From Nanobdellota archaeon (GTDB taxonomy: Archaea; Nanobdellota; Nanobdellia; Pacearchaeales; GW2011-AR1): a DNA stretch of 64,000 nt. Both the position numbers and the translations under genes were made by a program. The stretch spans positions 75,437-139,436 of the forward strand of contig JBBSXJ010000003.1 in NCBI GenBank assembly GCA_038045825.1, written 5' to 3'. Position 1 is the first letter of the stretch. The number at the start of each line of letters is the position of its first letter. The notes beneath the pieces were generated by a model. It was not told where the DNA came from and did no database searches. It worked only from the letters and a program-made list of their open reading frames with translations. Below are positions 4,605-16,407 of the stretch, piece by piece.

Positions 4605-4612
4605 TTTAAATA
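4605..4612 (+). promoter_or_regulatory. candidate archaeal TATA box (TTTAAATA) for the r-protein operon
   Basis: TTTAAATA lies about 100 nt upstream of the uL3 ATG in a 150-nt non-coding leader. No transcript data. Confidence 0.25.
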
Positions 4613-4712
4613 GTCCTTTTTTGAATTGGTTATCGTAGAAGTTGAACAAATGCAAGACGGTTGCTAACGTCAAGCATTAATCGGAAGAGTTGCTCCATAA
4701 ACACAATGGAAC

Positions 4713-5639
4713 ATGAAAATTTCAAGACCAAGATATGGAAGTTTGCAGTTTTGGCCACGTAAAAGGGCTGAACGTTTTTTACCTAGTGTTAACTGGGATG
4801 CAATAAAAGGAGAGGGTTTCTTAGGATTTATATCATATAAGGCTGGAATGGCTACTGCAATTGTTAAGGATTCTACTCCTAAGTCTATGACTCCTGGAAA
4901 GAAGATGGCTGTTCCAGTAACATTCTTGGAAATGCCTCCTATGAGAATTTACTCCGTTAGATTTTACAAGGATGGAAAGGTAATGACTGAAGTTGTTGTT
5001 TCAAATGATAGAGAATTAAAGAGAGTTGTTAAAGTCCCTAAAAATCCTTCTAAAGACCTCGACAATGTAAAAGATTTTGATGATATAAGAGTTATAGTAT
5101 ACTCCGTTCCTAAAGAAATTGGCCTTAAGAAAACCCCTGATATGACTGAAATTGGCGTTGGTGGAAAAGATAAGCTTAATTTTGTTAAAAATTATGTTGG
5201 AAAAGACATCAATGTTAATGATTTGAATGGGGATTTATTCGATGTTAGAGGATTGACTAAAGGTAAGGGATTATCTGGTCCAGTTCATAGATTTGGAATC
5301 AGTTTGAAACAGCACAAATCTGAAAAGGGAGTTAGAAAACCTGGTAGTTTAGGTCCATGGCATCCTGCTAGAGTTATATTCAGAGTTCCATTATCAGGAC
5401 AGCTAGGTATGTTCTCTAGACTTCATTATAACTTGAAAGTTCTGGCTTCTTCAGCAACAGCTGGAGATAAAGTAAAATTGAAACCATTTAAGAACTATGG
5501 AAATATAAAAACCAATTATGTTGTTCTTCACGGAAGTGTTCAAGGTCCTGCTAAAAGACAGATTTTATTGACTAGTCCATTAAGACCTTCATTAAAACAA
5601 ACTAGAAAGAAATTTGAAATGATTGAGGTACATATATGA
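4713..5639 (+). CDS. rpl3: 50S ribosomal protein uL3
   Basis: MKISRPRYGSLQFWPRKRA... and KGKGLSGPVHRFG motif; first gene of the conserved archaeal cluster. Confidence 0.95.
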   Translation: MKISRPRYGSLQFWPRKRAERFLPSVNWDAIKGEGFLGFISYKAGMATAIVKDSTPKSMTPGKKMAVPVTFLEMPPMRIYSVRFYKDGKVMTEVVVSNDRELKRVVKVPKNPSKDLDNVKDFDDIRVIVYSVPKEIGLKKTPDMTEIGVGGKDKLNFVKNYVGKDINVNDLNGDLFDVRGLTKGKGLSGPVHRFGISLKQHKSEKGVRKPGSLGPWHPARVIFRVPLSGQLGMFSRLHYNLKVLASSATAGDKVKLKPFKNYGNIKTNYVVLHGSVQGPAKRQILLTSPLRPSLKQTRKKFEMIEVHI

Positions 5640-5698
5640 AAGGACAAAAAATTGGTATTTTTAACATTTCATTTTCCATGGAGGAAAGAGTAAAATGA
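5636..5698 (+). repeat. inter-cistronic repeat element, copy 1 of 4 (uL3|uL4 junction)
   Basis: ATGAAAGGACAAAAAATTGGTATTTTTAACATTTCATTTTCCATGGAGGAAAGAGTAAAATGA; 58/63 identical to copy 2. Its ATG overlaps the uL3 TGA and its TGA overlaps the uL4 ATG. Confidence 0.9.
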
Positions 5699-6459
5699 AA
5701 GCAACAAACTACGACTTGAAAGGACAGAAGACTTCTGAAATTAATTTACCTGGAATATTTGCTACAAAAATAAGAGAAGATATTGCATTGAAATATTATG
5801 AAGCTGATAAGGAATTCCACCCTTATGCTCCCTCACCATTAGCTGGAAGAAAGCACTCTGCTTCTGGAACAATAAGTCACAGAAGACACGAATGGAAAGG
5901 ACATTATGGTAAAGGTATTTCTCGTGCTCCAAGAAAAGCAATGTGGAGAAGAGGAACTCAATTTTATTGGGTTGGCGCTGAAGTAAACTATGCAAGAGGC
6001 GGAAGAGCTGTTCATGCTCCAAAGATATTTTATAGACCTAGAAAGATAAATGATAATGAAATCAAGATAGCCATGCATTCTGCAATTGCTTCAACTGCTA
6101 AGAAAGAAATTGTTACAAAAAGATATACAAGATTGAATGATTTTGCAGGACAAGTTCCTTTTGTAATATCAAATGCTGAAAATATCAAAACAAAACAGTT
6201 AATTGAGATTTTGAAAAAAATGCTTGGAGACAAATATGAAGTTGCTCTGCAAGTAAAAAATGTAAGAAGTGGAAAAGGAAAGATGAGAAACAGAAAATAC
6301 AAGTCAACAGCTGGATTGTTATTTGTAAAAGCTAAGAATGAAAAAATAAATATTAAGGGAGTTGACGTCGTAAATGCTAACGAATTATCAATTGCTGATT
6401 TGTTCCCTTTGGGAAGACTTACTTTATATACTGAAAAATCCCTTGCGGAGTTGAAATAA
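5695..6459 (+). CDS. rpl4: 50S ribosomal protein uL4
   Basis: 254 aa, archaeal L4 N-terminus (MKATNYDLKGQKTSEINLP...) and operon position. Confidence 0.95.
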   Translation: MKATNYDLKGQKTSEINLPGIFATKIREDIALKYYEADKEFHPYAPSPLAGRKHSASGTISHRRHEWKGHYGKGISRAPRKAMWRRGTQFYWVGAEVNYARGGRAVHAPKIFYRPRKINDNEIKIAMHSAIASTAKKEIVTKRYTRLNDFAGQVPFVISNAENIKTKQLIEILKKMLGDKYEVALQVKNVRSGKGKMRNRKYKSTAGLLFVKAKNEKINIKGVDVVNANELSIADLFPLGRLTLYTEKSLAELK

Positions 6460-6460
6460 A

Positions 6461-6700
6461 ATGTTAAAACCTATTACATCTGAAAAAGCAGTAAAATTGA
6501 TTGATTTAGAGAATACTTTGTTGTTTGAAACAGACAGAAGAGAAACAAAAGATGTTATTGCAAAAGAAGTTGCTAACATGTTCAATGTTAAAGTTGAGAA
6601 AGTAAGAACATTAGTACGCGGAAATAAGAAATATGCGTATGTTAAACTAGCTAAACAAAATCCGGCAATTGATGTCGCGACTAAGTTGGGAATGATATGA
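6461..6700 (+). CDS. rpl23: 50S ribosomal protein uL23
   Basis: 79 aa, KKYAYVKL motif, operon position. Confidence 0.9.
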   Translation: MLKPITSEKAVKLIDLENTLLFETDRRETKDVIAKEVANMFNVKVEKVRTLVRGNKKYAYVKLAKQNPAIDVATKLGMI

Positions 6701-7056
6701 TGGTAACACAACAAACACCTCAATTAGAAGAAGGAAGAAAATATACTTTAATAGTTGGAAACAAAGGCGAAACACTAGAAGTTTTATATCTTGGAAAAGT
6801 TGTGAGACAACCGGTTTATTTTCCGCACGAATTTATTGGTAGGGCTCCTATTGGTGGCTCTGATAGTATTATTTCTTTTAGAATCAGAGAAGGAGGATTT
6901 AAAGTTAAAGCGGATTTGGTGGCACCTATTCCTGAAAAAGATGGAAGGGCATTTTTCACAAATATTTATAGTTCATCTTTTAGTCATGAAGTTGGACAAG
7001 TAGGTGTCGAAGAAAGAAGTAGATTGTTAGCTAAATTAAGGGGGGCTGGTTTGTAA
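6697..7056 (+). CDS. hypothetical protein embedded between uL23 and uL2
   Basis: 119-aa ORF. ATGA overlap with the uL23 stop and 1-nt spacer to the uL2 ATG; no family recognised. Confidence 0.6.
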   Translation: MMVTQQTPQLEEGRKYTLIVGNKGETLEVLYLGKVVRQPVYFPHEFIGRAPIGGSDSIISFRIREGGFKVKADLVAPIPEKDGRAFFTNIYSSSFSHEVGQVGVEERSRLLAKLRGAGL

Positions 7057-7057
7057 A

Positions 7058-7759
7058 ATGGGTAAGAGAATTATTTCACAGGCAAGAGGTAAGGGAAGTT
7101 TATCATACCAAGCAAGAAAACAAGCTTTCATTTATAGAATTGGATATCCAATTGGAAATGGAAAGGCAGAAGTCCTTAAGATATTGCACTCTGCTGCTCA
7201 CTCTGCTCCATTAATAAAATTGAAACTTGGTCACAGTATATTCTTCAATGTTGCATTTGATGGAGTAATGAGGGGGCAAAGTATTGTTATTGGTGGAACT
7301 GAAAATGCAATGGGAAATGTTATTGCTTTGAAAGACATTCCAGTATCAACAAGGATTTACAACATTGAACTTAACCCTGGAGACGGAGGAAAAATGATAA
7401 GAACATCTGGAAGCAGTGCTCAACTTTACAAAAGATATGATGATGGAAAAATAGGAATATTAATGCCTAATAGAAATGAATTGAAACTTGATGGAGAGTG
7501 CAGAGCAACTATAGGGATAATTGCTGGAGACGGAAGAAAACAGAAACCATTCATGAAAGCTGGAGTAGTACACTACAGAGCTAAGGCTAGAAACAAATTA
7601 TGGCCTAGAACTTCTGCTCTTAAGACTAACGCTGTAGATCATCCATTCGGTTCAGGAAGAGGAAAGAGACCTAAATCAAAGACTGCTAAGAGAAACGCTC
7701 CTCCAGGAAGAAGAGTAGGTCACTTAGCTCCTAGAAGAACAGGAAGGAAGAAACGATAA
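7058..7759 (+). CDS. rpl2: 50S ribosomal protein uL2
   Basis: C-terminal HPFGSGRG...APPGRRVGHLAPRRTGRKK signature. Confidence 0.95.
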   Translation: MGKRIISQARGKGSLSYQARKQAFIYRIGYPIGNGKAEVLKILHSAAHSAPLIKLKLGHSIFFNVAFDGVMRGQSIVIGGTENAMGNVIALKDIPVSTRIYNIELNPGDGGKMIRTSGSSAQLYKRYDDGKIGILMPNRNELKLDGECRATIGIIAGDGRKQKPFMKAGVVHYRAKARNKLWPRTSALKTNAVDHPFGSGRGKRPKSKTAKRNAPPGRRVGHLAPRRTGRKKR

Positions 7760-8163
7760 TGGCAAAAGAAATAGTAGCACTTAAGAGAGAAAAGAAATTC
7801 TGCGGTCTTACCATAGAGCAACTTAAAGCACTTTCACTAAAAGAAGCATCAGAATACATGCCTGCAAGAAGCAGACGTTCAGTGACTAGACATCCTGAAA
7901 TAATTGACAGATTTATCAAATCAGCTGAAGAGAAAATGTCAAGAAAGAAGAAAGTAAGAACACATTTAAGAGACTTGATTATAGTTCCTAAAATGGTTGG
8001 AATGAATGTTCAAATTTATAATGGAAAATCATTCGAAGAGCTTGCAGTTGATATTGAAATGATAGGTCATAGACTTGGAGAATTTGCATTAACAAGACAG
8101 AAAGTAAATCACTCTGCTGCTGGTATAGGAGCAACAAGAGGAAGTAAGGCAGCTAAGAAGTAA
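7759..8163 (+). CDS. rps19: 30S ribosomal protein uS19
   Basis: YNGKSFEEL...GHRLGEFALTR signature. Confidence 0.95.
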   Translation: MAKEIVALKREKKFCGLTIEQLKALSLKEASEYMPARSRRSVTRHPEIIDRFIKSAEEKMSRKKKVRTHLRDLIIVPKMVGMNVQIYNGKSFEELAVDIEMIGHRLGEFALTRQKVNHSAAGIGATRGSKAAKK

Positions 8164-8164
8164 A

Positions 8165-8761
8165 ATGGCAGAAACAAAAACAACAATGAATGAAGAAAAG
8201 CACACTCATACTGCTAAGACTGAAGAGAATAAACACAATCATGCCACTCATGAACATAAAGAAGGAGATAAACAAGATGAAAAAGCTCATGATCACAAAC
8301 ATGATTCAAAGACAGAACATAAACATGAAGAAAAGAAAGAAAAAATTGAAGTTAAAAAAGTAAAGAAAGATCATGCTATTGCTAGAAATGAAGGAGTTCA
8401 CATTTCAAAGAGACATGGAATATACATATGTTCATTCATTAAAGGAAAGACAATTGACAGAGCAATCAAAGAACTTGAGGAAGTAATAATTCTCAAGAGA
8501 GCTATTCCTTTCAAAGGAGAAATACCTCATAGAAAAGGAGACATGATGTCTGGTCGTTATCCCGTTGCTGCGTCTAAAATATTTATATCTATGCTTAAGA
8601 ACTTAAAGGGTGCTGTTTTGTACAACGGTATGGACATTACAAAAGCAAGAATATCTTCTGCATATACTAATTTCTCTCCTAGACCTCAAAGAAGAGGCGG
8701 AGCAAAAGGAAAGAGAGCATCTGTAACTATTGAAGCAAGAGAAATAGGGGTAAAGAAATAA
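8165..8761 (+). CDS. rpl22: 50S ribosomal protein uL22 with ~70-aa His/Lys/Glu-rich N-terminal extension
   Basis: The C-terminal ~125 aa match uL22 (ISKRHGIYICSFIKGKTIDRAIKELEEV). The N-terminus is low-complexity with repeated H-x-H. Confidence 0.9.
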   Translation: MAETKTTMNEEKHTHTAKTEENKHNHATHEHKEGDKQDEKAHDHKHDSKTEHKHEEKKEKIEVKKVKKDHAIARNEGVHISKRHGIYICSFIKGKTIDRAIKELEEVIILKRAIPFKGEIPHRKGDMMSGRYPVAASKIFISMLKNLKGAVLYNGMDITKARISSAYTNFSPRPQRRGGAKGKRASVTIEAREIGVKK

Positions 8762-9441
8762 TGGAAGAGAAAAAATTTGTAAAATTCAAACAAGATGAAC
8801 TTGGAATTAAAGAATATGTTAAACATTCTTTAGGAAAAGGAAGAATTAGCGATGTTTCAATTGAGTATACTCCAGTTGGAGAGAAGATAATTATTGCAAC
8901 AAACAGACCAGGTCTTGTTATCGGAAAGAGAGGAGAAAAAATAGAAGAACTAACAACTGTTTTAAGAAAGAGATTCCAACTTGACAACCCTCATATTGAT
9001 ATCAAAGAAATTTCTAATGAAGCTCTTGATGCACAACTTGTAGCTGACTCGATAGCTATACAGCTTGAAAGAAAAGGGTCTCTAAAATTCAAAATAATTG
9101 CTTACAAGGCTCTTGATAGTATAATGAAAGCTGGAGCTCTTGGTGTTGAATTAGCATTGTCTGGAAAACTCCCGAGTGAAAGAGCTAAGACATGGAGATT
9201 CCAACAAGGTTATTTGAAGAAAACAGGAGATCCTTCTAAAGTAGTTGAAAAGGCTATGGCTCAAGCAAGAACTCAAATGGGAGTTATAGGAATAAAAGTA
9301 AGTATACTTCCACCTAATGCCCATATACACGATCAGATCAAAGTTAATGATGCTTTAATGCATTTGATTCAGCAGAATAAAATTGCTATGAATGAAAAGC
9401 CAGTTAAGAAAGCAAAGAAGAAGAAGGGAGCTAGTGAATAA
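8761..9441 (+). CDS. rps3: 30S ribosomal protein uS3
   Basis: KH-domain motif VIGKRGEKIEELT; operon position. Confidence 0.95.
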   Translation: MEEKKFVKFKQDELGIKEYVKHSLGKGRISDVSIEYTPVGEKIIIATNRPGLVIGKRGEKIEELTTVLRKRFQLDNPHIDIKEISNEALDAQLVADSIAIQLERKGSLKFKIIAYKALDSIMKAGALGVELALSGKLPSERAKTWRFQQGYLKKTGDPSKVVEKAMAQARTQMGVIGIKVSILPPNAHIHDQIKVNDALMHLIQQNKIAMNEKPVKKAKKKKGASE

Positions 9442-9641
9442 TGGCAATTTTGAAAGCAAAAGAAGCTAGCAAGATGGATCAAAAAGCTAGAAATGAAAAG
9501 ATGAAGGAATTGAAGTTGGAATTAATGAAATCGCAAGCAGGAGCTCAGAAATCTTCAGGTAAAACCAAAGAGATAAAAAGGGCTATTGCACGCTTACTCA
9601 CATTCAACTCAGCCAACAAGGTTAAGGAGAAAAACAAGTAA
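9441..9641 (+). CDS. rpl29: 50S ribosomal protein uL29
   Basis: 66 aa, helical, ELKLELMKSQAG; operon position. Confidence 0.85.
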   Translation: MAILKAKEASKMDQKARNEKMKELKLELMKSQAGAQKSSGKTKEIKRAIARLLTFNSANKVKEKNK

Positions 9642-9941
9642 ATGGAAATAGACCCAAGAACAGGATTACCAATAGCTGGAATATCTTGGGAAGATTTGGC
9701 CAAAGGCCAACAGAAGATAAAGATAGCGACTGAAAAACGTCGTTATGGCAAGGTTATCACCCTTGTCTCAGGCTTTGACAAAGGCATTGATTTAAAAGCC
9801 ACTGCAAAGGCATTAAAGGAAGGACTCGCCTGTGGAGGGACAATAAAGGATCAGGTCATTGAACTTCAAGGAGATCACAAAAGACAAGCCAGAGTAATCT
9901 TAGTAAAAATAGGATTTTCTGATGAGTCAATTGAGGACTAA
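9642..9941 (+). CDS. sui1: translation initiation factor aIF1 / SUI1
   Basis: RRYGKVITLVSGF...ALKEGLACGGT... matches the SUI1 fold; commonly located here in archaea. Confidence 0.85.
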   Translation: MEIDPRTGLPIAGISWEDLAKGQQKIKIATEKRRYGKVITLVSGFDKGIDLKATAKALKEGLACGGTIKDQVIELQGDHKRQARVILVKIGFSDESIED

Positions 9942-9942
9942 T

Positions 9943-10263
9943 ATGGCAAAAACACAAAAAACAGAAATAAAAATTGAAAAGAAAACACCAGAAGTAGTTG
10001 GAACTAGAGGAAGAACATTTGAAGGAACAGTTGTAAAGAAATTTGACAAAAGAGCAGTTGTTGAATTTGATAGAACTGTAAAAGTTGCAAAGTATGAAAG
10101 ATTTATGAGAAAGACTACAAGAGTTCATTCTAGAATTCCTACAGGAATGAATGTTAATATTGGAGATTATGTTAAAGTTCAGGAATGCAGACCTTTGAGT
10201 AAAATGATTCACTCAGTTGTTATTGAAATAATGAGACCAGTATCTCAAGGAGTTGCAAAATGA
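9943..10263 (+). CDS. rps17: 30S ribosomal protein uS17
   Basis: ECRPLSK motif. I moved the start from the track's 9922 to ATG 9943, 1 nt after the SUI1 stop. Confidence 0.9.
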   Translation: MAKTQKTEIKIEKKTPEVVGTRGRTFEGTVVKKFDKRAVVEFDRTVKVAKYERFMRKTTRVHSRIPTGMNVNIGDYVKVQECRPLSKMIHSVVIEIMRPVSQGVAK

Positions 10264-10322
10264 AAGGACAAAAAATCTATATTTTTAACCTTTCATTTTC
10301 CCTGGAGGAAAGAGTAAAATGA
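10260..10322 (+). repeat. inter-cistronic repeat element, copy 2 of 4 (uS17|uL14 junction)
   Basis: ATGAAAGGACAAAAAATCTATATTTTTAACCTTTCATTTTCCCTGGAGGAAAGAGTAAAATGA; ATGA overlaps at both ends; GGAGG at 10304-10308. Confidence 0.9.
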
Positions 10323-10720
10323 AAGCTATACCTGCAAGAGCAACAAGAGGATTGAATATTGGAAGCGTAGTTGTAGCTAGTGATAATAGTGGAGCTAGAT
10401 TAGTTAGAATTGTTGGAGTTAAAAAAGGAAAAACAGGAAAAGGAACTCAACAGTATGCTAAAATGGCTGACTATGTTAAGGTTTCAGTTAGAGCTGGAAA
10501 GCCAGATATGAAGGGACAAGTTTTCGACGCTATCATTATCAGACAGAAAAAACCATACAGAAGAAATACTGGAGAAAGAGTAATGTTTGAAGATAATGCG
10601 GTATGTTTACTAAAAGACGAAAAAGGAAACCCTAAAGGTACATTCATTAAAGGACCAATAAGTAAAGAAGTTTTTGAAAGGTGGAAAGCTGTTGCAAAAA
10701 TAGCCCAATTCGTACTATGA
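10319..10720 (+). CDS. rpl14: 50S ribosomal protein uL14
   Basis: VVASDNSGARLVRIVGV motif. Confidence 0.95.
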   Translation: MKAIPARATRGLNIGSVVVASDNSGARLVRIVGVKKGKTGKGTQQYAKMADYVKVSVRAGKPDMKGQVFDAIIIRQKKPYRRNTGERVMFEDNAVCLLKDEKGNPKGTFIKGPISKEVFERWKAVAKIAQFVL

Positions 10721-11022
10721 CAAATGAAAAATTAATTAGTCTTGAAGGAAAAGTTGCAAACTTAGTCTACTGTAATTCAAGAGAACCAGATGCATCCGGT
10801 CTTCCTGAAAACTTTGTTTCACTTAAGATAAGAACTCGCAATGGGAGAGTCAATGTTTTGTTAACTGGTAAATATATCCCGCCTATACAAAATGAGACTT
10901 ATGTTGAAGTGATATTAGAAAAAGTTAGACTTAAACACAGGGAAACTGATGATTATGTAGTAAGATTTATGTGGGGAAAAGAATCTGAAAGTGGAAAAGA
11001 ATTCTGGGAGTATCAAGGTTAA
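10717..11022 (+). CDS. hypothetical protein embedded between uL14 and uL24
   Basis: 101 aa from ATG 10717 (the track starts at GTG 10681 inside uL14). ATGA overlap with the uL14 stop and 1-nt spacer to the uL24 ATG; no family recognised. Confidence 0.6.
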   Translation: MTNEKLISLEGKVANLVYCNSREPDASGLPENFVSLKIRTRNGRVNVLLTGKYIPPIQNETYVEVILEKVRLKHRETDDYVVRFMWGKESESGKEFWEYQG

Positions 11023-11023
11023 T

Positions 11024-11449
11024 ATGAGAACACAATTTTCTACATCATGGAAATCTAGTGAACAACCTAGAAAGCAAAGAAAATACAGATATGAAGCTCC
11101 TCTTCACATAAAGCATAAGTTTTTAAGCGCTCCATTATCAAAAGAATTACGCAAGAAGCACGGAATACGCTCATTGCCCGTTAGAACTGGCGACGAGGTT
11201 AACATTATGCGTGGAACATTTGCCGGCAAAAAAGCCAAAGTAATGAATGTTGAAGTCAATAAGTCAAGAGTAACTCTTGAAAACATTACAAGAAAAAAAG
11301 CAGATGGAACAAAGCTAAATGTGTATTTCAATCCAAGTAAATTGCAAATAATTGCGTTGAAGCTGGATGATTCGCGCAGATTGCCTTCAGGCAACACTGG
11401 CGGAACAAAGAAATCCGAGGAAAAAAACAATGCACCAAACACGAAGTGA
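11024..11449 (+). CDS. rpl24: 50S ribosomal protein uL24
   Basis: KOW motif VRTGDEVNIMRGTFAGKKAKV. Start moved to ATG 11024 (the track's 10991 overlaps the previous ORF). Confidence 0.9.
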   Translation: MRTQFSTSWKSSEQPRKQRKYRYEAPLHIKHKFLSAPLSKELRKKHGIRSLPVRTGDEVNIMRGTFAGKKAKVMNVEVNKSRVTLENITRKKADGTKLNVYFNPSKLQIIALKLDDSRRLPSGNTGGTKKSEEKNNAPNTK

Positions 11450-12047
11450 AGTCATTAAACAATTACCATTAGCAAGAAAAGGATCAAAATATGTAGCTCG
11501 CGCTATTAGGAATAGTTCTAATTCTGTACCTCTTATAGTTGCAGTAAGAGATATGCTTAAGCTTGCAAAAACAAGCAAGGAAGTTAAAGGAATGGTTCAT
11601 AACAAGAAACTTAAGATAAATGGTAAAGTTGCAAAGAACTTAACTGACCCTATATGCTTATTCTCAAGAATTGAAGCTGATAAAAATTATTTATTGACTA
11701 TGTTGCCTACAGGAAGATTCTCATTTGTTGAAACAAAAGACAATGAAAGAAAACTTAAGATTATGGGAAAAACAATGGTTAAGGGAAAGAAGCTTCAATA
11801 TTCTCTTCACGATGGAACAAGCATTGTATCTGACAAAGAATTCTCAGTTGGAGATACATTGATATTAAACAATGAAAATAAAGTCTCAAAACATATTGCA
11901 CTGGATAATGGAAAAGAAGTTTTTGCATTCTCTGGAAGTTATATTGGAAAACAAGGAAAAGTTCAGAATGTTTCGGGAAACAAAATAACTGTAAAGTTTG
12001 ACAAGGAGGAAGCTGTGATTGAAAAGTCACAAGTAATTGTAATATGA
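11430..12047 (+). CDS. rps4e: 30S ribosomal protein eS4
   Basis: MHQTRSEVIKQLPLARKGSKYV... typical S4e N-terminus; start moved to ATG 11430. Confidence 0.9.
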   Translation: MHQTRSEVIKQLPLARKGSKYVARAIRNSSNSVPLIVAVRDMLKLAKTSKEVKGMVHNKKLKINGKVAKNLTDPICLFSRIEADKNYLLTMLPTGRFSFVETKDNERKLKIMGKTMVKGKKLQYSLHDGTSIVSDKEFSVGDTLILNNENKVSKHIALDNGKEVFAFSGSYIGKQGKVQNVSGNKITVKFDKEEAVIEKSQVIVI

Positions 12048-12106
12048 AAGGACGAAAAATCTATATTTTTAACCTTTCATTTTCCCTGGAGGAAAGAGTA
12101 AAATGA
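12044..12106 (+). repeat. inter-cistronic repeat element, copy 3 of 4 (eS4|uL5 junction)
   Basis: 62/63 identical to copy 2 (single A to G change at element position 11); ATGA overlaps at both ends. Confidence 0.9.
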
Positions 12107-12624
12107 AAGCACAATTGGTTAATGTAATGAGAATTCCTAAAATAACAAGGGTTGTTCTTAGTGCTGGAGCTGTCGATAAAGATTTAGAAAAAGCAAAGAA
12201 ATTACTTGAAATGATTTCAGAGAAAAAAGCTCAAGTTACAAAATCTGGACCTAGAATGAGAATTCCTGCTTTTGGAGTTAAACCTAAAATGGAATTAGGC
12301 ACTAGTGTTACATTGAGGAAGAAAGAAGCTATTGAGGTATTAAAGAGACTACTAGGTGCTATTGATAACAAACTTAAGGTTTCTTCAATAGATAAAAATA
12401 ATTTTTCATTTGGCATACCTGAATACATTAACATACCTGGAGTAAAGTATCTTAGAGAAATAGGTATCAGAGGATTTAATGTAACTGTTGTATTTGAAAG
12501 ACCTGGATTAAGAGTAAAGAAAAGAAAAATTAAAACTGGTAAGGTTCCTAGCAGACAGCATGTGACTCAAGAAGAAATAATAGAATACATGAAAGATACT
12601 TTCAAAACGGAGATAATAGAATGA
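12103..12624 (+). CDS. rpl5: 50S ribosomal protein uL5
   Basis: MRIPKITRVVLSAGA... and operon position. Confidence 0.9.
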   Translation: MKAQLVNVMRIPKITRVVLSAGAVDKDLEKAKKLLEMISEKKAQVTKSGPRMRIPAFGVKPKMELGTSVTLRKKEAIEVLKRLLGAIDNKLKVSSIDKNNFSFGIPEYINIPGVKYLREIGIRGFNVTVVFERPGLRVKKRKIKTGKVPSRQHVTQEEIIEYMKDTFKTEIIE

Positions 12625-12851
12625 CCGCAAGCGATTGGAATAAAGTATTGAAACAGATCAGGAACAAACCAGCTATGGCTAAGAAATTCCTTAAATTTAA
12701 TAAGCCAAAGGATAGAAAAACAGGGGTAGCTGCGCAGAAATGTAAACGCTGCGGAAGATTTGGAGCTCACTTAAATCAATATGCTCTGCATTTATGCAGA
12801 CATTGCTTCAGAGAAATAGCTGAAGAAATAGGTTTCAAAAAATACTCATGA
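12621..12851 (+). CDS. rps14: 30S ribosomal protein uS14 (zinc type)
   Basis: CKRCGR...CRHCF zinc knuckles. The ATG at 12621 forms an ATGA overlap with uL5; an alternative internal start is 12675 (MAKKFLKF...). Confidence 0.85.
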   Translation: MTASDWNKVLKQIRNKPAMAKKFLKFNKPKDRKTGVAAQKCKRCGRFGAHLNQYALHLCRHCFREIAEEIGFKKYS

Positions 12852-13222
12852 GTCAAGACATTGTTTCAGACGGTTTAAATAGAATAATGAACGCAAAGTT
12901 AGCTGGGCAAACTAACATTACTTTGAAGCACCATTCAAAGTTCTTGCAAAATGTATTAGCAATAGGAAAATTAAAGAAATATATATCAGAATATTCAGTA
13001 ACTCCAAAGGGATTATATGTTGAGTTCAATACTCTTAACAGATGTAGAGCTGTAAAACCTAGATATATTGTAAAAGTAAAGGATATTGATAAGTATGTAA
13101 GAAGATACTTGCCTGCTAGAGGAATTGGAATCCTTGTTATATCAACAAGTAGGGGATTAGTTACTCACCAAACAGCTTTGGATAAAGGAATAGGAGGAAG
13201 CATTGTTGCTTATTTCTACTAA
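12848..13222 (+). CDS. rps8: 30S ribosomal protein uS8
   Basis: DGLNRIMNAKLAG N-terminus; operon position. Confidence 0.9.
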   Translation: MSQDIVSDGLNRIMNAKLAGQTNITLKHHSKFLQNVLAIGKLKKYISEYSVTPKGLYVEFNTLNRCRAVKPRYIVKVKDIDKYVRRYLPARGIGILVISTSRGLVTHQTALDKGIGGSIVAYFY

Positions 13223-13764
13223 TGAAAAACAACTATGAAACAACTGTTGAGATACCTGAAGGAATTAACTGCACTAGTTCAGGAACTACATTAAATTGTT
13301 CTAAAGGAAACACTCAATTAGTAAAGAAATTTGAGATTCACACAATTATTATATCTGTAAAGGGAAAGGAAATAGTTTTGACATGCAAGAAAGCAAATAA
13401 AAGAGGAGTTGCAAATGTTAATGCAATTGCTGCTCACATAAGAAACTTATTCCTTGGATTAAATGAGAGATTTGTATATGAAATGGAAATATGTAATGTA
13501 CACTTTCCTATGACTGTTAAAACGGATAAAGAAAATTTTATAATCACAAACTTTTTGGGAGAAAAGGTTCCTAGAAATGCAAAGATATTGTCTGGAGTTG
13601 AAGTAAAAGTTGCTGGAACTAAAGTTACTATTTCAAGCGCTGACATTGAGAAGGCTGGGCAAACAGCAGCTAATATTGAAAAAGCATCTAAAGTGACTAA
13701 GAAAGATAGAAGAATTTTCCAGGATGGAATATTTATCACTAAAAAACCAGGAGCTGAAAAATGA
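13222..13764 (+). CDS. rpl6: 50S ribosomal protein uL6
   Basis: 180 aa, two-domain beta-rich protein in the canonical position. Confidence 0.9.
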   Translation: MKNNYETTVEIPEGINCTSSGTTLNCSKGNTQLVKKFEIHTIIISVKGKEIVLTCKKANKRGVANVNAIAAHIRNLFLGLNERFVYEMEICNVHFPMTVKTDKENFIITNFLGEKVPRNAKILSGVEVKVAGTKVTISSADIEKAGQTAANIEKASKVTKKDRRIFQDGIFITKKPGAEK

Positions 13765-14117
13765 GTTTCTTAAGAAGAAGTACATTGAAACATTCAAGAA
13801 TGGGTCTTGGAAGACGTAAATTGCATAGATGGAGAAGGGCAGTTGGAAGACATAGCAAACTAAGAAAAAACAGATTTGGTTATACTAAGTCTCCTAGAAT
13901 AGGATTCAAATCCCCTAGATCTGAAAGTGGAAAAATAAATGGAAAAATACCTATCAGAGTAACAAACATGCAAGAAATGAATAAAGCAAACAAGGACAAC
14001 ATAATAATCATAGCTAGAACAATAGGTGTTAGAAAGAGAATTGAAATGATAAAAAAAGCAGATGAAATGAAAGTTGAAGTATTGAATATTAAGTCAAATT
14101 TTGGAGGAATTAAATAA
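13761..14117 (+). CDS. rpl32e: 50S ribosomal protein eL32
   Basis: HRWRRAVGRHSKLRKNRFGYTKSPRIGFKSP signature. Confidence 0.85.
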   Translation: MSFLRRSTLKHSRMGLGRRKLHRWRRAVGRHSKLRKNRFGYTKSPRIGFKSPRSESGKINGKIPIRVTNMQEMNKANKDNIIIIARTIGVRKRIEMIKKADEMKVEVLNIKSNFGGIK

Positions 14118-14530
14118 TGGATTTATATAAGAAAAAAGCTCTTGCGTCTAGAACTTTGAATGTTGGAATGGGAAGAATAAGATTTAACTCTAACAATATA
14201 AATGAAATCAAAGAAGCTATTACAAAGCAGGATATTCGTGACCTTGTAGCTGCTAAGGCAATATTTGTTAATCCAGTTAAGGGAAGAAAAGTAAATTCCC
14301 CTAGAAAGAGAAGAAGGGCTGGAAGCATAAGAATGAGACCTAACAGCAGAAAGAGAGATTATATAATATTAACGAGAAAGTTGAGAAGCTATTTAAGTGA
14401 AATAAGAAAACAAGGCAAAATTACAGATGAAGAATTTGCAACTCTTAGAAATGGAGTTAGAAGCAAGACTTTCAAGAATAAGAATAATCTAAAGGAGCAT
14501 ATACAAGTTATGCAGAAGGAGACTAAATAA
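14117..14530 (+). CDS. rpl19e: 50S ribosomal protein eL19
   Basis: LASRTLNVGMGRIRF N-terminus, basic C-terminus. Confidence 0.9.
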   Translation: MDLYKKKALASRTLNVGMGRIRFNSNNINEIKEAITKQDIRDLVAAKAIFVNPVKGRKVNSPRKRRRAGSIRMRPNSRKRDYIILTRKLRSYLSEIRKQGKITDEEFATLRNGVRSKTFKNKNNLKEHIQVMQKETK

Positions 14531-14531
14531 A

Positions 14532-14591
14532 ATGCAAGGACAAAAAATTGATATTTTTAACCTTTCATTTTATTCTGGAGGAGTAAAATAA
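14532..14591 (+). repeat. inter-cistronic repeat element, copy 4 of 4 (eL19|uL18 junction), diverged
   Basis: ATGCAAGGACAAAAAATTGATATTTTTAACCTTTCATTTTATTCTGGAGGAGTAAAATAA; 60 nt, same core, small indels near the 3' end. Confidence 0.85.
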
Positions 14592-14592
14592 A

Positions 14593-15075
14593 ATGCAAGG
14601 CGTACAAAAAACAGTAAGAAGAAGAAGACATGAAGGAAAAACTGATTACAAAGCTAGATTTTATCTTCTAAAATCTGGACAGGCTAGAGTTGTATTTAGA
14701 AAGACAAACAGATTTTTACAAGCTCAAATAGTTACTTCTGATATTGCTCAAGACAAAGTAATTATAACTGTAAGCACAAAAGACTTGCTTCAACACGGAT
14801 GGCCTGAAAAGCTTTCTGGAAGTTTAAAGAGTTTACCTGCAGCATATTTGATGGGATGCTTGCTTGCTAAGAAAACAAAGATTAAGAGTGGAGTTCTTGA
14901 TATAGGATTGCTTTCACACGTTCCAAAATCAAGAATATATGCATTCGTTAAAGGGATGAAAGACTCCGGATTTGAAATGCCTGTTAAAGAAGATGTTTTA
15001 CCTACTGATGAAATGATTAATCACAAAGAAGAAACAGCAAAGCTTATTAAACAACTTAAGGAGAAGCTGAAATGA
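14593..15075 (+). CDS. rpl18: 50S ribosomal protein uL18
   Basis: RRRRHEGKTDYKAR signature. Confidence 0.9.
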   Translation: MQGVQKTVRRRRHEGKTDYKARFYLLKSGQARVVFRKTNRFLQAQIVTSDIAQDKVIITVSTKDLLQHGWPEKLSGSLKSLPAAYLMGCLLAKKTKIKSGVLDIGLLSHVPKSRIYAFVKGMKDSGFEMPVKEDVLPTDEMINHKEETAKLIKQLKEKLK

Positions 15076-15809: not shown

Positions 15810-16222
15810 TAATTGTAATAAGAATATCTGGAATGGTTGACGTACCTGAAGATATAGATGCCGCATTGCATAGTATCAAACTTAGAAGAAAGTATTCTGC
15901 AATACTCATGCATGAAAGTCCTGAAAACTCCAAGTTGCTTAATAAAATAAGAAGTTTTGTTGCATTTGGAGAAGTATCAAATGAGAATCTTGTTAAACTA
16001 GTGTCTTTGAGAGGAGAATCAACAAAGAAAGGAAAAATAGATGCAGAATCAATTGTTAAAAATTTAGATAAAAAGTCATTAATTGAACAGGGAATGAAAC
16101 CATTCTTTAGATTGCACCCTCCTAGAAAAGGAATTGAAAGCAAGAAACACTTTGGAATTGGAAAAGGAGTTTTAGGAGATAATAAAGATCATATAAACGC
16201 GCTTCTGGAGAGAATGTTATGA
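15806..16222 (+). CDS. rpl30: 50S ribosomal protein uL30
   Basis: IIVIRISGMVDVPEDIDAALHSIKLRRKY; operon position. Confidence 0.85.
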   Translation: MIIVIRISGMVDVPEDIDAALHSIKLRRKYSAILMHESPENSKLLNKIRSFVAFGEVSNENLVKLVSLRGESTKKGKIDAESIVKNLDKKSLIEQGMKPFFRLHPPRKGIESKKHFGIGKGVLGDNKDHINALLERML

Positions 16223-16407
16223 GTAAAGTAAAATCAGCATGGGAATGTCAATGTGGGGCAATTGCTTATGGTAAATTACCTCCTGCTGAATGTAAAAGAT
16301 GCGGGGAAGAAGGCTCATATGCAGAAGCTGATGAAGATGATTTAGATGAATTAGCTGGAGAAAACTTAATGGAAGAAATAAGATCTAAAGATTGGGGGGA
16401 AGAATAA
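16219..16407 (+). CDS. zinc-ribbon protein with acidic C-terminal tail, embedded between uL30 and uL15
   Basis: 62 aa; C-x-C...C-x2-C (WECQCG...ECKRCG) followed by a D/E-rich tail. ATGA overlap with uL30 and TAATG overlap with uL15. Confidence 0.6.
   Translation: MSKVKSAWECQCGAIAYGKLPPAECKRCGEEGSYAEADEDDLDELAGENLMEEIRSKDWGEE

Follow-up and report, generated by a model that had tools for sequence, protein, structure and literature searches.

A palindromic insert at ribosomal-protein gene junctions of Pacearchaeota, probably a translationally coupled mini-cistron

The ribosomal-protein (r-protein) operon in a 64-kb stretch of the Nanobdellota archaeon contig JBBSXJ010000003.1 (assembly GCA_038045825.1, positions 75,437 to 139,436; the whole stretch is hereafter called the window) exhibits four copies of a repeat of about 60 nucleotides (nt), each lying between two genes. 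The coordinates of every copy correspond exactly, from ATG to stop, to an open reading frame (ORF) of 19-20 codons that overlaps or abuts both neighbouring genes. We favour, with somewhat better than even confidence, the interpretation that this element is a junction-specific, self-copying palindromic mini-cistron, which would be rendered harmless by a termination-reinitiation relay and by the Shine-Dalgarno site that it supplies.

Four insertions in one operon

All four copies are present on the plus strand where a sequence-only reading of this DNA had placed them (5636-5698, 10260-10322, 12044-12106 and 14532-14591), and Pfam identifies the flanking genes as uL3|uL4, uS17|uL14, eS4|uL5 and eL19|uL18, respectively. 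The differences reported between copies also hold: 1 nt between copies 2 and 3, 5 nt between copies 1 and 2, and indels in the 3' part of copy 4. A degenerate pattern of the 36-nt core matches the 64 kb exactly four times, always at these sites (0 matches expected from 100 shuffles), and an nhmmer profile built from eight family members detected no further, weaker copy in the window. Separate assemblies of seven samples, among them the metagenome-assembled genome GCA_964368055.1, each contain this operon with all four copies (Hainich groundwater metagenomes; Pacearchaeote, DPANN). Since independent contigs carry them, the four copies are not an assembly artefact.

The closest comparison is provided by a sister species (L031, GCA_053535335.1; loci of relatives are designated by L numbers), of which the uL14 protein is identical to that of the window, the r-protein genes exhibit 87-93% DNA identity and the 4-fold degenerate sites are about 15-21% different. 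All four junctions are empty in this species, with ordinary overlaps or a 1-nt spacer. Its uL4, uL14 and uL5 genes natively start with ATGAAAGC, a start that uL14 exhibits in every relative examined, and its uL18 junction reads TAAAATGCAAGGCG. Aligned with it, the window shows three 59-nt insertions with a duplicated ATGAAAG and one 61-nt insertion with a duplicated TAAAATGCAAGG. Because the sister junctions are empty and the downstream genes natively start with ATG[A/C]AAG, the copies are insertions with target duplications of 7-12 nt. A downstream gene starting with ATG[A/C]AAG is the property that the four sites share: operon genes with this start are occupied in 4 of 4 cases, the other operon genes in 0 of 21. 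Outside the operon, about five window genes with such a start (19638, 23032, 55672, -31812 and -39354) are unoccupied.

These results alter the picture drawn from the sequence alone, according to which the element was the only intergenic DNA of the operon and filled exactly its four non-overlapping junctions. The first statement fails because the copies are open frames coupled to both neighbours, leaving no non-coding DNA at the four junctions. The second is circular, the four junctions being non-overlapping because the element was inserted there. The remaining junctions from uL4 to uL15 are all overlapping or have 0-1 nt spacers, as had been stated, with the correction that overlaps of 20 nt number two and not one. 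An expected sharing of the spacer sequence with related genomes is borne out by more distant relatives, which carry the same element, and contradicted by the nearest ones, which lack any spacer. Among more distant relatives, these junctions are likewise empty in L007, L008, L009, L020-24, L025, L028-30, L033-36 and L041. Two other origins were considered and rejected. A simple tandem duplication of the junction does not explain the core of about 36 nt, which matches the upstream 3' end or the downstream 5' end for at most 7 nt. Nor did the element bring its own ATGAAAGCA and thereby extend uL5, the sister species having the same uL5 start.

Copies 1 to 3 translate as MKG[Q/R]KI[G/Y]IFN[I/L]SFS[M/L]EERVK followed by a stop. 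At their left end the ATG of the mini-ORF shares its A with the upstream TGA (ATGA), and at their right end the TGA of the mini-ORF shares its TG with the downstream ATG (again ATGA). As had been noticed before, each copy supplies a GGAGG to the downstream gene; it lies within the element, 10-11 nt 5' of the ATG. The native Shine-Dalgarno sites of the four sister junctions are GAGG, GGAG, none and GGAAG.

Copy 1 (mini-ORF MKGQKIGIFNISFSMEERVK) starts on the uL3 stop and ends on the uL4 ATG at 5695. Its inserted segment is 59 nt relative to the empty sister site (...cacatATGAAAGCGACC), and the target ATGAAAG, the native uL4 start, is found at 5636-5642 (left duplicate) and 5695-5701 (right duplicate). 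Its inverted repeat (5636-5672) consists of the 5' arm ATGAAAGGACAAAAAAT (5636-5652), the loop TGGT (5653-5656) and the 3' arm ATTTTTAACATTTCAT (5657-5672), with a C>A change at 5666 that breaks one outer pair; its GGAGG (5680-5684) is 10 nt 5' of the uL4 ATG. Copy 2 (mini-ORF MKGQKIYIFNLSFSLEERVK) has an ATGA overlap at each end, with the uL14 ATG at 10319, its GGAGG at 10304-10308 (10 nt 5' of this ATG) and duplicates of the native uL14 start ATGAAAG at 10260-10266 and 10319-10325. In its inverted repeat (10260-10296), ATGAAAGG and CCTTTCAT form 8 bp and AAAAAT and ATTTTT form 6 bp around the loop CTAT (10277-10280), for an RNA minimum free energy of -12.1 kcal/mol.

Copy 3 (mini-ORF MKGRKIYIFNLSFSLEERVK) also overlaps both neighbours by ATGA, with the uL5 ATG at 12103. 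Its inverted repeat (12044-12080, loop CTAT) carries a private A>G at 12056, in an internal loop. Its GGAGG (12088-12092) precedes a uL5 gene of which the native sister junction lacks any Shine-Dalgarno site, and the native uL5 start of the clade, ATGAAAG, is duplicated at 12044-12050 and 12103-12109 (empty sister site ...atagtaatATGAAAGCACAATTA). Copy 4 (mini-ORF MQGQKIDIFNLSFYSGGVK) starts 1 nt past the eL19 TAA and has its own TAA 1 nt before the uL18 ATG at 14593; it differs from the other copies by compensating +1 and -4 indels that keep the frame. Its inverted repeat (14532-14568, loop TGAT) carries the target variant ATGCAAGG, giving one C/T mismatch against CCTTTCAT, and its GGAGG (14577-14581) is 11 nt 5' of the uL18 ATG. 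The 12-nt target TAAAATGCAAGG is duplicated at 14528-14539 and 14589-14600 (empty sister site ...gtaaaTAAAATGCAAGGCGTAC). The native uL18 start itself (14593-14612; ATGCAAGG-CGT-ACAAAAAAC) resembles the left arm ATGAAAGGACAAAAAAT, here at 14532-14548, beyond the duplicated target. This likeness could mean that the palindrome originated by fold-back of a uL18-like start, or that homology made uL18 a target despite its A>C mismatch.

The first 8 nt of the element, ATGAAAGG, are the exact reverse complement of CCTTTCAT at element positions 30-37, and this outer stem encloses an inner stem AAAAAT-N4-ATTTTT. The 5' 37 nt thus make up one imperfect hairpin, containing both the upstream stop and the mini-ORF start, with an RNA minimum free energy of -8 to -13 kcal/mol and unremarkable z-scores of -0.2 to -2.6. 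Pair counts (94% of cells paired, against 42-63% in slid controls) indicate that the hairpin structure is real. An alternative pairing is also available, in which the partner of CCUUUCAUUUU is the downstream AAAAUGAAAG in place of the upstream AAAAUGAAAGG, so that the Shine-Dalgarno site and the AUG are enclosed. The second pairing exists because the start region is repeated on both sides of the element, and in L012 it is the minimum-free-energy fold.

Probable translational coupling and proposed spread of the element

The coupled anatomy is not a peculiarity of the window. All 10 distinct variants, from 14 loci, keep an open frame with coupled ends: they have 19-20 codons (38 in a tandem), a GGAGG 7-11 nt before the downstream ATG, and an end in ATGA or TAA-N-ATG. 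The period lengths of 59, 56 and 113 nt are all equal to 2 modulo 3, and neither a -3 indel nor the +1/-4 pair nor a tandem fusion disrupts the frame. Seven architectures of junction inserts, four of this family and three of other, unrelated sequence (L020 and L028 at uL2|uS19 and L035 at uL4|uL23), are all fully coding and coupled at both ends. The null probability of coupling is 0.03-0.22 for each, with a product of 1.7e-8; a conservative estimate that takes common descent of the family members into account is about 1e-5. Translational coupling by termination-reinitiation at ATGA and TAATG overlaps has been described by Huber et al. (PMC6728339, PMC10666635), and in Haloferax volcanii and Escherichia coli an intergenic distance of about 20 nt nearly abolishes it (PMC10666635). 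A non-coding spacer of 55-62 nt would therefore uncouple the genes. Because all architectures are coupled and the null probability is low, we conclude that the element most likely acts as a relay cistron, its role in expression being read from its anatomy.

We propose the following scheme. The element would be a small insertion without an enzyme gene of its own, composed of a palindromic core of about 36 nt and a Shine-Dalgarno tail of 13-20 nt. It would land directly after TG[A/C/G]AAG, in practice behind the first seven bases (ATGAAAG or ATGCAAG) of r-protein genes with a start that overlaps the previous stop, and its insertion would duplicate 7-20 nt of the junction. The left copy of the start codon would then open the frame of 19-20 codons through the element. 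This frame would include the GGAGG, at a distance of 7-11 nt from the start codon's right copy, and stop on ATGA or TAA-N-ATG. A ribosome ending the upstream gene would re-initiate on the mini-ORF, terminate, and re-initiate again on the r-protein gene, so that the termination-reinitiation chain of the operon would stay unbroken. The embedded GGAGG, stronger than the native sites, may in addition offer the downstream gene an independent ribosome entry point. The element would persist through translational transparency.

This layout is that of the synthetic "bicistronic design" leader cistron, reportedly introduced by Mutalik et al. in 2013, in which a short upstream cistron contains the Shine-Dalgarno site of the next gene and its stop overlaps the start of that gene. 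Such coupled leader cistrons are known both to hand ribosomes on and to unfold the initiation region of the gene that follows. The difference is that the leader cistron is here a repeated, recently inserted element between two native genes, for which coupling is deduced.

Searches beyond the window used a core pattern with 24 specified bases against GTDB species genomes, a metagenome collection and viral contigs. The metagenome scan returned the operon of the window species and those of three other organisms. L012 exhibits a copy at uL3|uL4. In L014, the copy lies at uS17|uL14 between perfect 19-nt repeats, GGAGGAAACAAAATGAAAG, a sequence identical to the empty site of L007, which is closely related. 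In L019, two tandem units (57 and 56 nt, 113 in total) occupy uS17|uL14 and form one frame of 38 codons ending in ATGA, the first unit being 1 nt longer and the second ATG having become CTG. In a fifth lineage (L037/L039), perfect 20-nt repeats, TTGGAGGAATAAAATGAAAG, enclose a copy at eL19|uL18, and the 5' leader of the L008 operon contains a degenerate copy flanked by GGAAG. The sequence-only reading was thus right to call this a true repeat family, the same core being found in other Pacearchaeota lineages, and right about its restriction to the r-protein operon: every true family member from the unbiased pattern scans lies there, all sequence searched giving only operon junctions and the one leader copy. 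This restriction applies to the 64-kb window, the loci of about 40 relatives and one Hainich assembly (H51) in the searched collection; the H51 assembly yielded only the operon contig and one match in the operon of another organism, and no copy of the window species elsewhere.

Matches of other kinds were set aside. GTDB species genomes gave only two matches, both bacterial and due to chance, and the metagenome matches L013 and L015-L017, from contigs of 24-41% GC, lie in or near unrelated ORFs and lack both ATGAAAGG and the Shine-Dalgarno tail; we regard them as chance, low-complexity matches. Viral contigs gave zero matches to two patterns of this family (family A) and to family B, a second group of inserts treated below, and hence no support for a viral vector. 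It had been suggested that no described repeat family sits in r-protein operons in this way, and we agree: Rfam gives nothing at gathering thresholds over the 64 kb and nothing relevant at E<=10 in the operon, the best sub-threshold match on the element being to a miRNA-hairpin model, with 26 bits where 90 are required, and our literature search found no published description of the element.

The boundaries of the copies suggest how they may spread. Measured against the empty sites of L031 and L007, the target duplications of the family span 7-20 nt: three are ATGAAAG, one is TAAAATGCAAGG, and those of L014 and L037 have 19 and 20 nt, respectively. At right boundaries of the first type (L014 and L037), the duplication begins at the Shine-Dalgarno site and equals the local native junction. 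Those of the second type have a foreign tail, with repeats of 7-10 nt in window copies 1-3 and L012 and of up to 12 nt in copy 4; window copies 1-3 share one tail, and the L012 tail resembles the uS17|uL14 junction of L007 and L014. We infer copying between similar junctions of one operon by short-homology template switching or gene conversion; the left switch point would be ATGAAAG, the right one GGAGG or ATGAAAG. A nascent strand with ATGAAAG at its end would switch to the left repeat of an existing copy, copy the core, and return at GGAGG or ATGAAAG; the two boundary types would be expected according to whether this return to the first template comes early or late. Slippage between the direct repeats would produce tandem copies or precise deletion. 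The same short repeats would account for the L019 tandem, the conversion tracts described below, precise loss and the patchy presence among relatives. Pfam scans of the window ORFs and of 30 further ORFs identified no transposase, integrase, reverse transcriptase, Cas1 or RAYT-like gene.

Variation within species is consistent with such exchange. Among strains of the window species, the density of single-nucleotide polymorphisms (SNPs) is 3.6% in the elements against about 0.4% in the flanks, and variant patches (loop TTGG/CTAT/TTGA; CCC/CCA/CTA; AACC/AACA) recur at other junctions, which shows that the copies convert one another. L037-L040, which share an identical uL4 protein, exhibit strain-level presence or absence of other junction inserts, indicating a fast turnover.

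Known classes of small repeats share part of these features. As with MITEs (transposable elements of the miniature inverted-repeat kind) and repetitive extragenic palindromes (REPs), the element is short, lacks coding capacity for an enzyme, contains an imperfect palindrome and duplicates its target; several near-identical copies exist per genome, they are patchy among relatives and they are co-transcribed with their neighbours (PMC10969869). Unlike MITEs, it has no terminal inverted repeats: the arms, at element positions 1-17 and 22-37, link the 5' end, duplicated target included, to the middle, with a 3' tail of 20-25 nt outside. The target duplication is MITE-like, although its variable length of 7-20 nt is atypical for a transposase. 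The copies are not dispersed as those of MITEs are: all four have the same orientation and fall into a 9-kb part of a single operon, the remaining 55 kb being free of them, and the 64-kb window contains no parent insertion sequence or transposase. REPs and bacterial interspersed mosaic elements (BIMEs) are extragenic palindromes of 20-40 nt with tens to hundreds of copies and a RAYT gene, whereas the present element has 1-4 copies, is itself coding and has no RAYT-like gene in the window; unlike MITEs and REPs, it invariably constitutes a translationally coupled ORF by itself.

Rickettsia palindromic elements (RPEs) of about 100-150 bp are fused in frame into host proteins (PMC10969869). Like them, the element would be a palindromic selfish repeat tolerated in a dense, reduced genome by keeping a reading frame open; it differs in its size of about 50 nt, its separate ORF out of frame with both neighbours and its position between genes, the host taxa are unrelated and there is no sequence similarity. 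In erm-type translational attenuators, a leader-peptide ORF is combined with a middle segment that pairs either upstream or with the downstream Shine-Dalgarno and start region. The leader ORF of about 19 codons and the alternative pairing of a middle segment are found here as well, but the element gives no sign of stalling or of an inducer and the alternative pairing follows from the direct repeat of the start region. The element therefore resembles a coupled leader cistron in function and small palindromic repeats in evolution, and it falls outside the MITE, REP and RPE classes.

Competing explanations

The strongest alternative is that the host recruited the element as a cis-regulatory RNA. 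Through its hairpin and alternative pairing it would affect the polycistronic mRNA by attenuating or insulating translation, by offering a site for RNase processing or for stability, or by terminating part of the transcripts, thus adjusting the output of uL4, uL14, uL5 and uL18. We regard this as unlikely, though it is the alternative to be taken most seriously. In its favour, none of the 36 core positions outside the loop differs among w2, L012, L014 and L019a, whereas the 4-fold degenerate sites of the adjacent uL14 differ by 41-54% between the window, L014 and L019. The 4-nt loop, in contrast, varies freely (TGGT, CTAT, TGAT, TGAG and AGAG), and the 3' tail differs between lineages. The variant shared by L037 and L008 has about five core differences, including a G8>T paired with a C>A that yields ATGAAAGT/ACTTTCAT; this is one compensatory change from G-C to U-A, and one G.U pair is also found in the outer stem of these variants. 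The alternative pairing of CCUUUCAUUUU with AAAAUGAAAG, which would hide the downstream Shine-Dalgarno site and AUG, and the location of 4 of the 12 runs of at least five T on the operon sense strand within the elements also fit a regulatory RNA. Against it, the absence from the sister species and most relatives implies that the element is dispensable. The hairpin is of the ordinary stability given above, with stems almost all of A-U pairs; its covariation, with the one compensatory pair, falls short of significance, 38 of 500 shuffles scoring at least as high; window copies 1 and 4 have private mutations that disrupt pairs and are uncompensated; and Rfam holds no match.

The sequence-only reading considered that the AT-rich palindrome might serve as an internal archaeal promoter, a TATA box possibly accompanied by a transcription factor B recognition element (BRE), that would add transcripts of the downstream gene. 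This we find improbable, and the claim is poorly supported. The invariant TTTTTAAC does match the TTTTTAAA variant of this genome at 7 of 8 positions, TTTTTAAA precedes at least four window genes, and a transcription start about 22 nt downstream would leave a leader of 5-10 nt on the r-protein gene. However, from the end of the octamer to the ATG there are 30 nt in copies 1-3, 32 nt in copy 4 and 27 nt in the L014 type, against 20-23 nt for the promoters of the genome itself, and the BRE position falls in the loop, the sole variable part of the core. Nor would a promoter account for the conserved left arm or other conservation beyond the TATA-like octamer, for the CCTTTCATTTT segment, for an open frame with coupled stops, or for the target duplication, and the sister species expresses the same genes without the element. 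As a separate observation, about 20 window starts (e.g. 23032, 33029, 43147, 47811, -2305 and -50016) are preceded by a TTTAAATA, TTTTTAAA or TTTATAAA octamer 20-23 nt before the ATG, implying that first genes are mostly leaderless in the window, with internal operon genes using GGAGG and overlaps.

A functional micropeptide gene, in which the product of 19-20 residues (MKGQKIxIFNLSF...; predicted peptides IYIFNLSFSLEER, IGIFNISFSMEER and IDIFNLSFYSGGVK) is itself selected, for instance as a ribosome-associated or nascent-chain regulatory peptide, appears still more doubtful. The frame is open in all variants, codon 6 (ATT, ATC or ATA) always encodes Ile, and codon 15 (CTG, TTG, CTT or ATG) encodes Leu or Met. 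Yet the 11 core codons outside the loop exhibit no synonymous difference, against about 50% divergence at neighbouring 4-fold sites, which points to constraint, or recency, at the nucleotide level. Residue 7 varies freely among G, Y, D and E, the last third of the peptide differs between lineages and is frame-shifted in copy 4, and KIxIF is the mere translation of the palindrome AAAAAT-N4-ATTTTT. A 77-residue concatenate of the variants found no homologue at E<=10 among 5.8 billion proteins.

A one-off local duplication in a single species, devoid of mobility and function, agrees with the confinement of all copies to 9 kb of one operon and with their absence from the sister species, and is nevertheless very improbable, as the same core occurs in four more lineages at the same and other junctions and as a degenerate leader copy, the copies of other lineages have their own target duplications, and copies still exchange sequence between strains. 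Several categories were rejected outright. The defining motifs of a C/D-box small RNA, a CRISPR repeat, a programmed frameshift site, an integron attC and an IS200/IS605-type end are absent from the sequence. An archaeal intron of the bulge-helix-bulge type, which has at its two boundaries a 4-bp helix between 3-nt bulges, one on each strand, does not fit a hairpin with a 3x2 internal loop of directly opposed sides and boundaries that are direct repeats and not complementary.

Several points weigh against the self-copying mini-cistron that we prefer. Copy numbers of 1-4 per genome, all in one operon, are atypical of a selfish repeat, and the restriction to that operon is drawn from the sampled loci named above. 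The complete invariance of the core beside strongly diverged 4-fold sites needs recent transfer between lineages, selection at the level of the element amid frequent loss, or a host function; moreover, lineages with the identical core each have a closer relative free of it (L031 for the window, L007 for L014). The start codon of the mini-ORF lies inside the outer stem of the hairpin, which could hinder re-initiation. Finally, translation of the mini-ORF is deduced from anatomy, and the copying mechanism is a proposal read from the repeat boundaries.

Other inserts of the operon and implications

Inserts unrelated to family A are also found in r-protein operons of other Pacearchaeota. Family B comprises junction mini-cistrons of 37-63 codons at uL4|uL23, uS8|uL6, uL6|eL32 and uS3|uL29 (L035:2961-3083; L037:9496-9663 and 10199-10390; L038:9876-9989; L012:2092-2233; nhmmer E-values of 1e-32 to 1e-42). 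They share the motif KF[PS]xTE..KVS.YF.STSS..LA[IM]G, are all coupled at both ends and are absent from the window; their central hairpin CAGAAACTT...AAGTTTCTG exhibits a compensatory change to CAGAAAATT...AATTTTCTG in L038. Mini-cistrons of other sequence, with 24 and 25 codons, are located at uL2|uS19 in L020 (1301-1375) and L028 (4947-5025), respectively. They start on or next to the upstream stop, their hairpin consists of start-proximal sequence and its inverted copy, and they are flanked by a duplicated initiation region (TAAACATGGCAAAA; GCAGGAG-N7-TAATG). Taken together, this suggests that the window element is one of several such families in Pacearchaeota r-protein operons. More tentatively, and at something short of an even chance, these operons may host an unrecognised class of enzyme-free "junction-hopping mini-cistrons" (families A and B and the single uL2|uS19 inserts), hairpin-bearing repeats that would settle at stop/start overlaps, spread by template-switch copying from one translation-initiation region to a similar one, and evade purifying selection through a coupling relay.

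Longer frames without a Pfam match occupy other junctions of the window operon. An ORF of 101 amino acids (aa) between uL14 and uL24 (10717-11022, plus strand) exhibits only 27% protein identity between strains of the same species, with 126 SNPs and 49 gap positions in about 500 nt against flanks at least 99.5% identical; L031 and L037 have distant versions of 105 and 103 aa, respectively, at this junction. The ORF resembles a cassette that is hypervariable or replaceable. A 119-aa ORF between uL23 and uL2 (6697-7056, plus strand) overlaps or abuts both neighbours. The same junction holds 111-aa ORFs in L019 and L037 (65% mutual identity, not clearly related to the window ORF), a 91-aa ORF in L007 and L014, a 112-aa ORF in L020, and none in L008, L009, L025 and L031. 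Between uL30 and uL15, a 62-aa ORF (16219-16407, plus strand) has no significant Pfam match, and its position and length (62-63 aa) are kept in all relatives examined. The uL3 5' leader (about 4640-4700; L008:4738-4850) contains a conserved GCAAGACGGTTGCTAACGTCAAGC...GGAAGAGTTGCTCCATAA, about 100 nt 3' of the TTTAAATA box at 4605, and gives no Rfam match; it may be a structured operon leader. Elsewhere in the window, 21485-63459 is a large cluster for protein glycosylation and surface polysaccharides, with an STT3/AglB-like oligosaccharyltransferase, many GT2 and GT4 glycosyltransferases, carbamoyltransferases, DegT aminotransferases, epimerases/dehydratases and flippases.

For the annotation of such operons, our results are a warning that apparent "spacers" can be coupled mini-ORFs. 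Should the element be the mini-cistron that we propose, there would be room for colonisation even in a reduced DPANN genome's most conserved and most densely packed operon, by an invader that survives by copying the grammar of the operon: a start on the previous stop, a Shine-Dalgarno site inside and a stop on the next start. It would be a natural counterpart of the synthetic bicistronic leader design and a natural experiment on how strictly termination-reinitiation needs overlaps, and it would provide a presence/absence marker that varies between strains and species of uncultivated Pacearchaeota. If it has a host function instead, DPANN archaea would gain with it their first candidate for a cis-regulator of r-protein synthesis.

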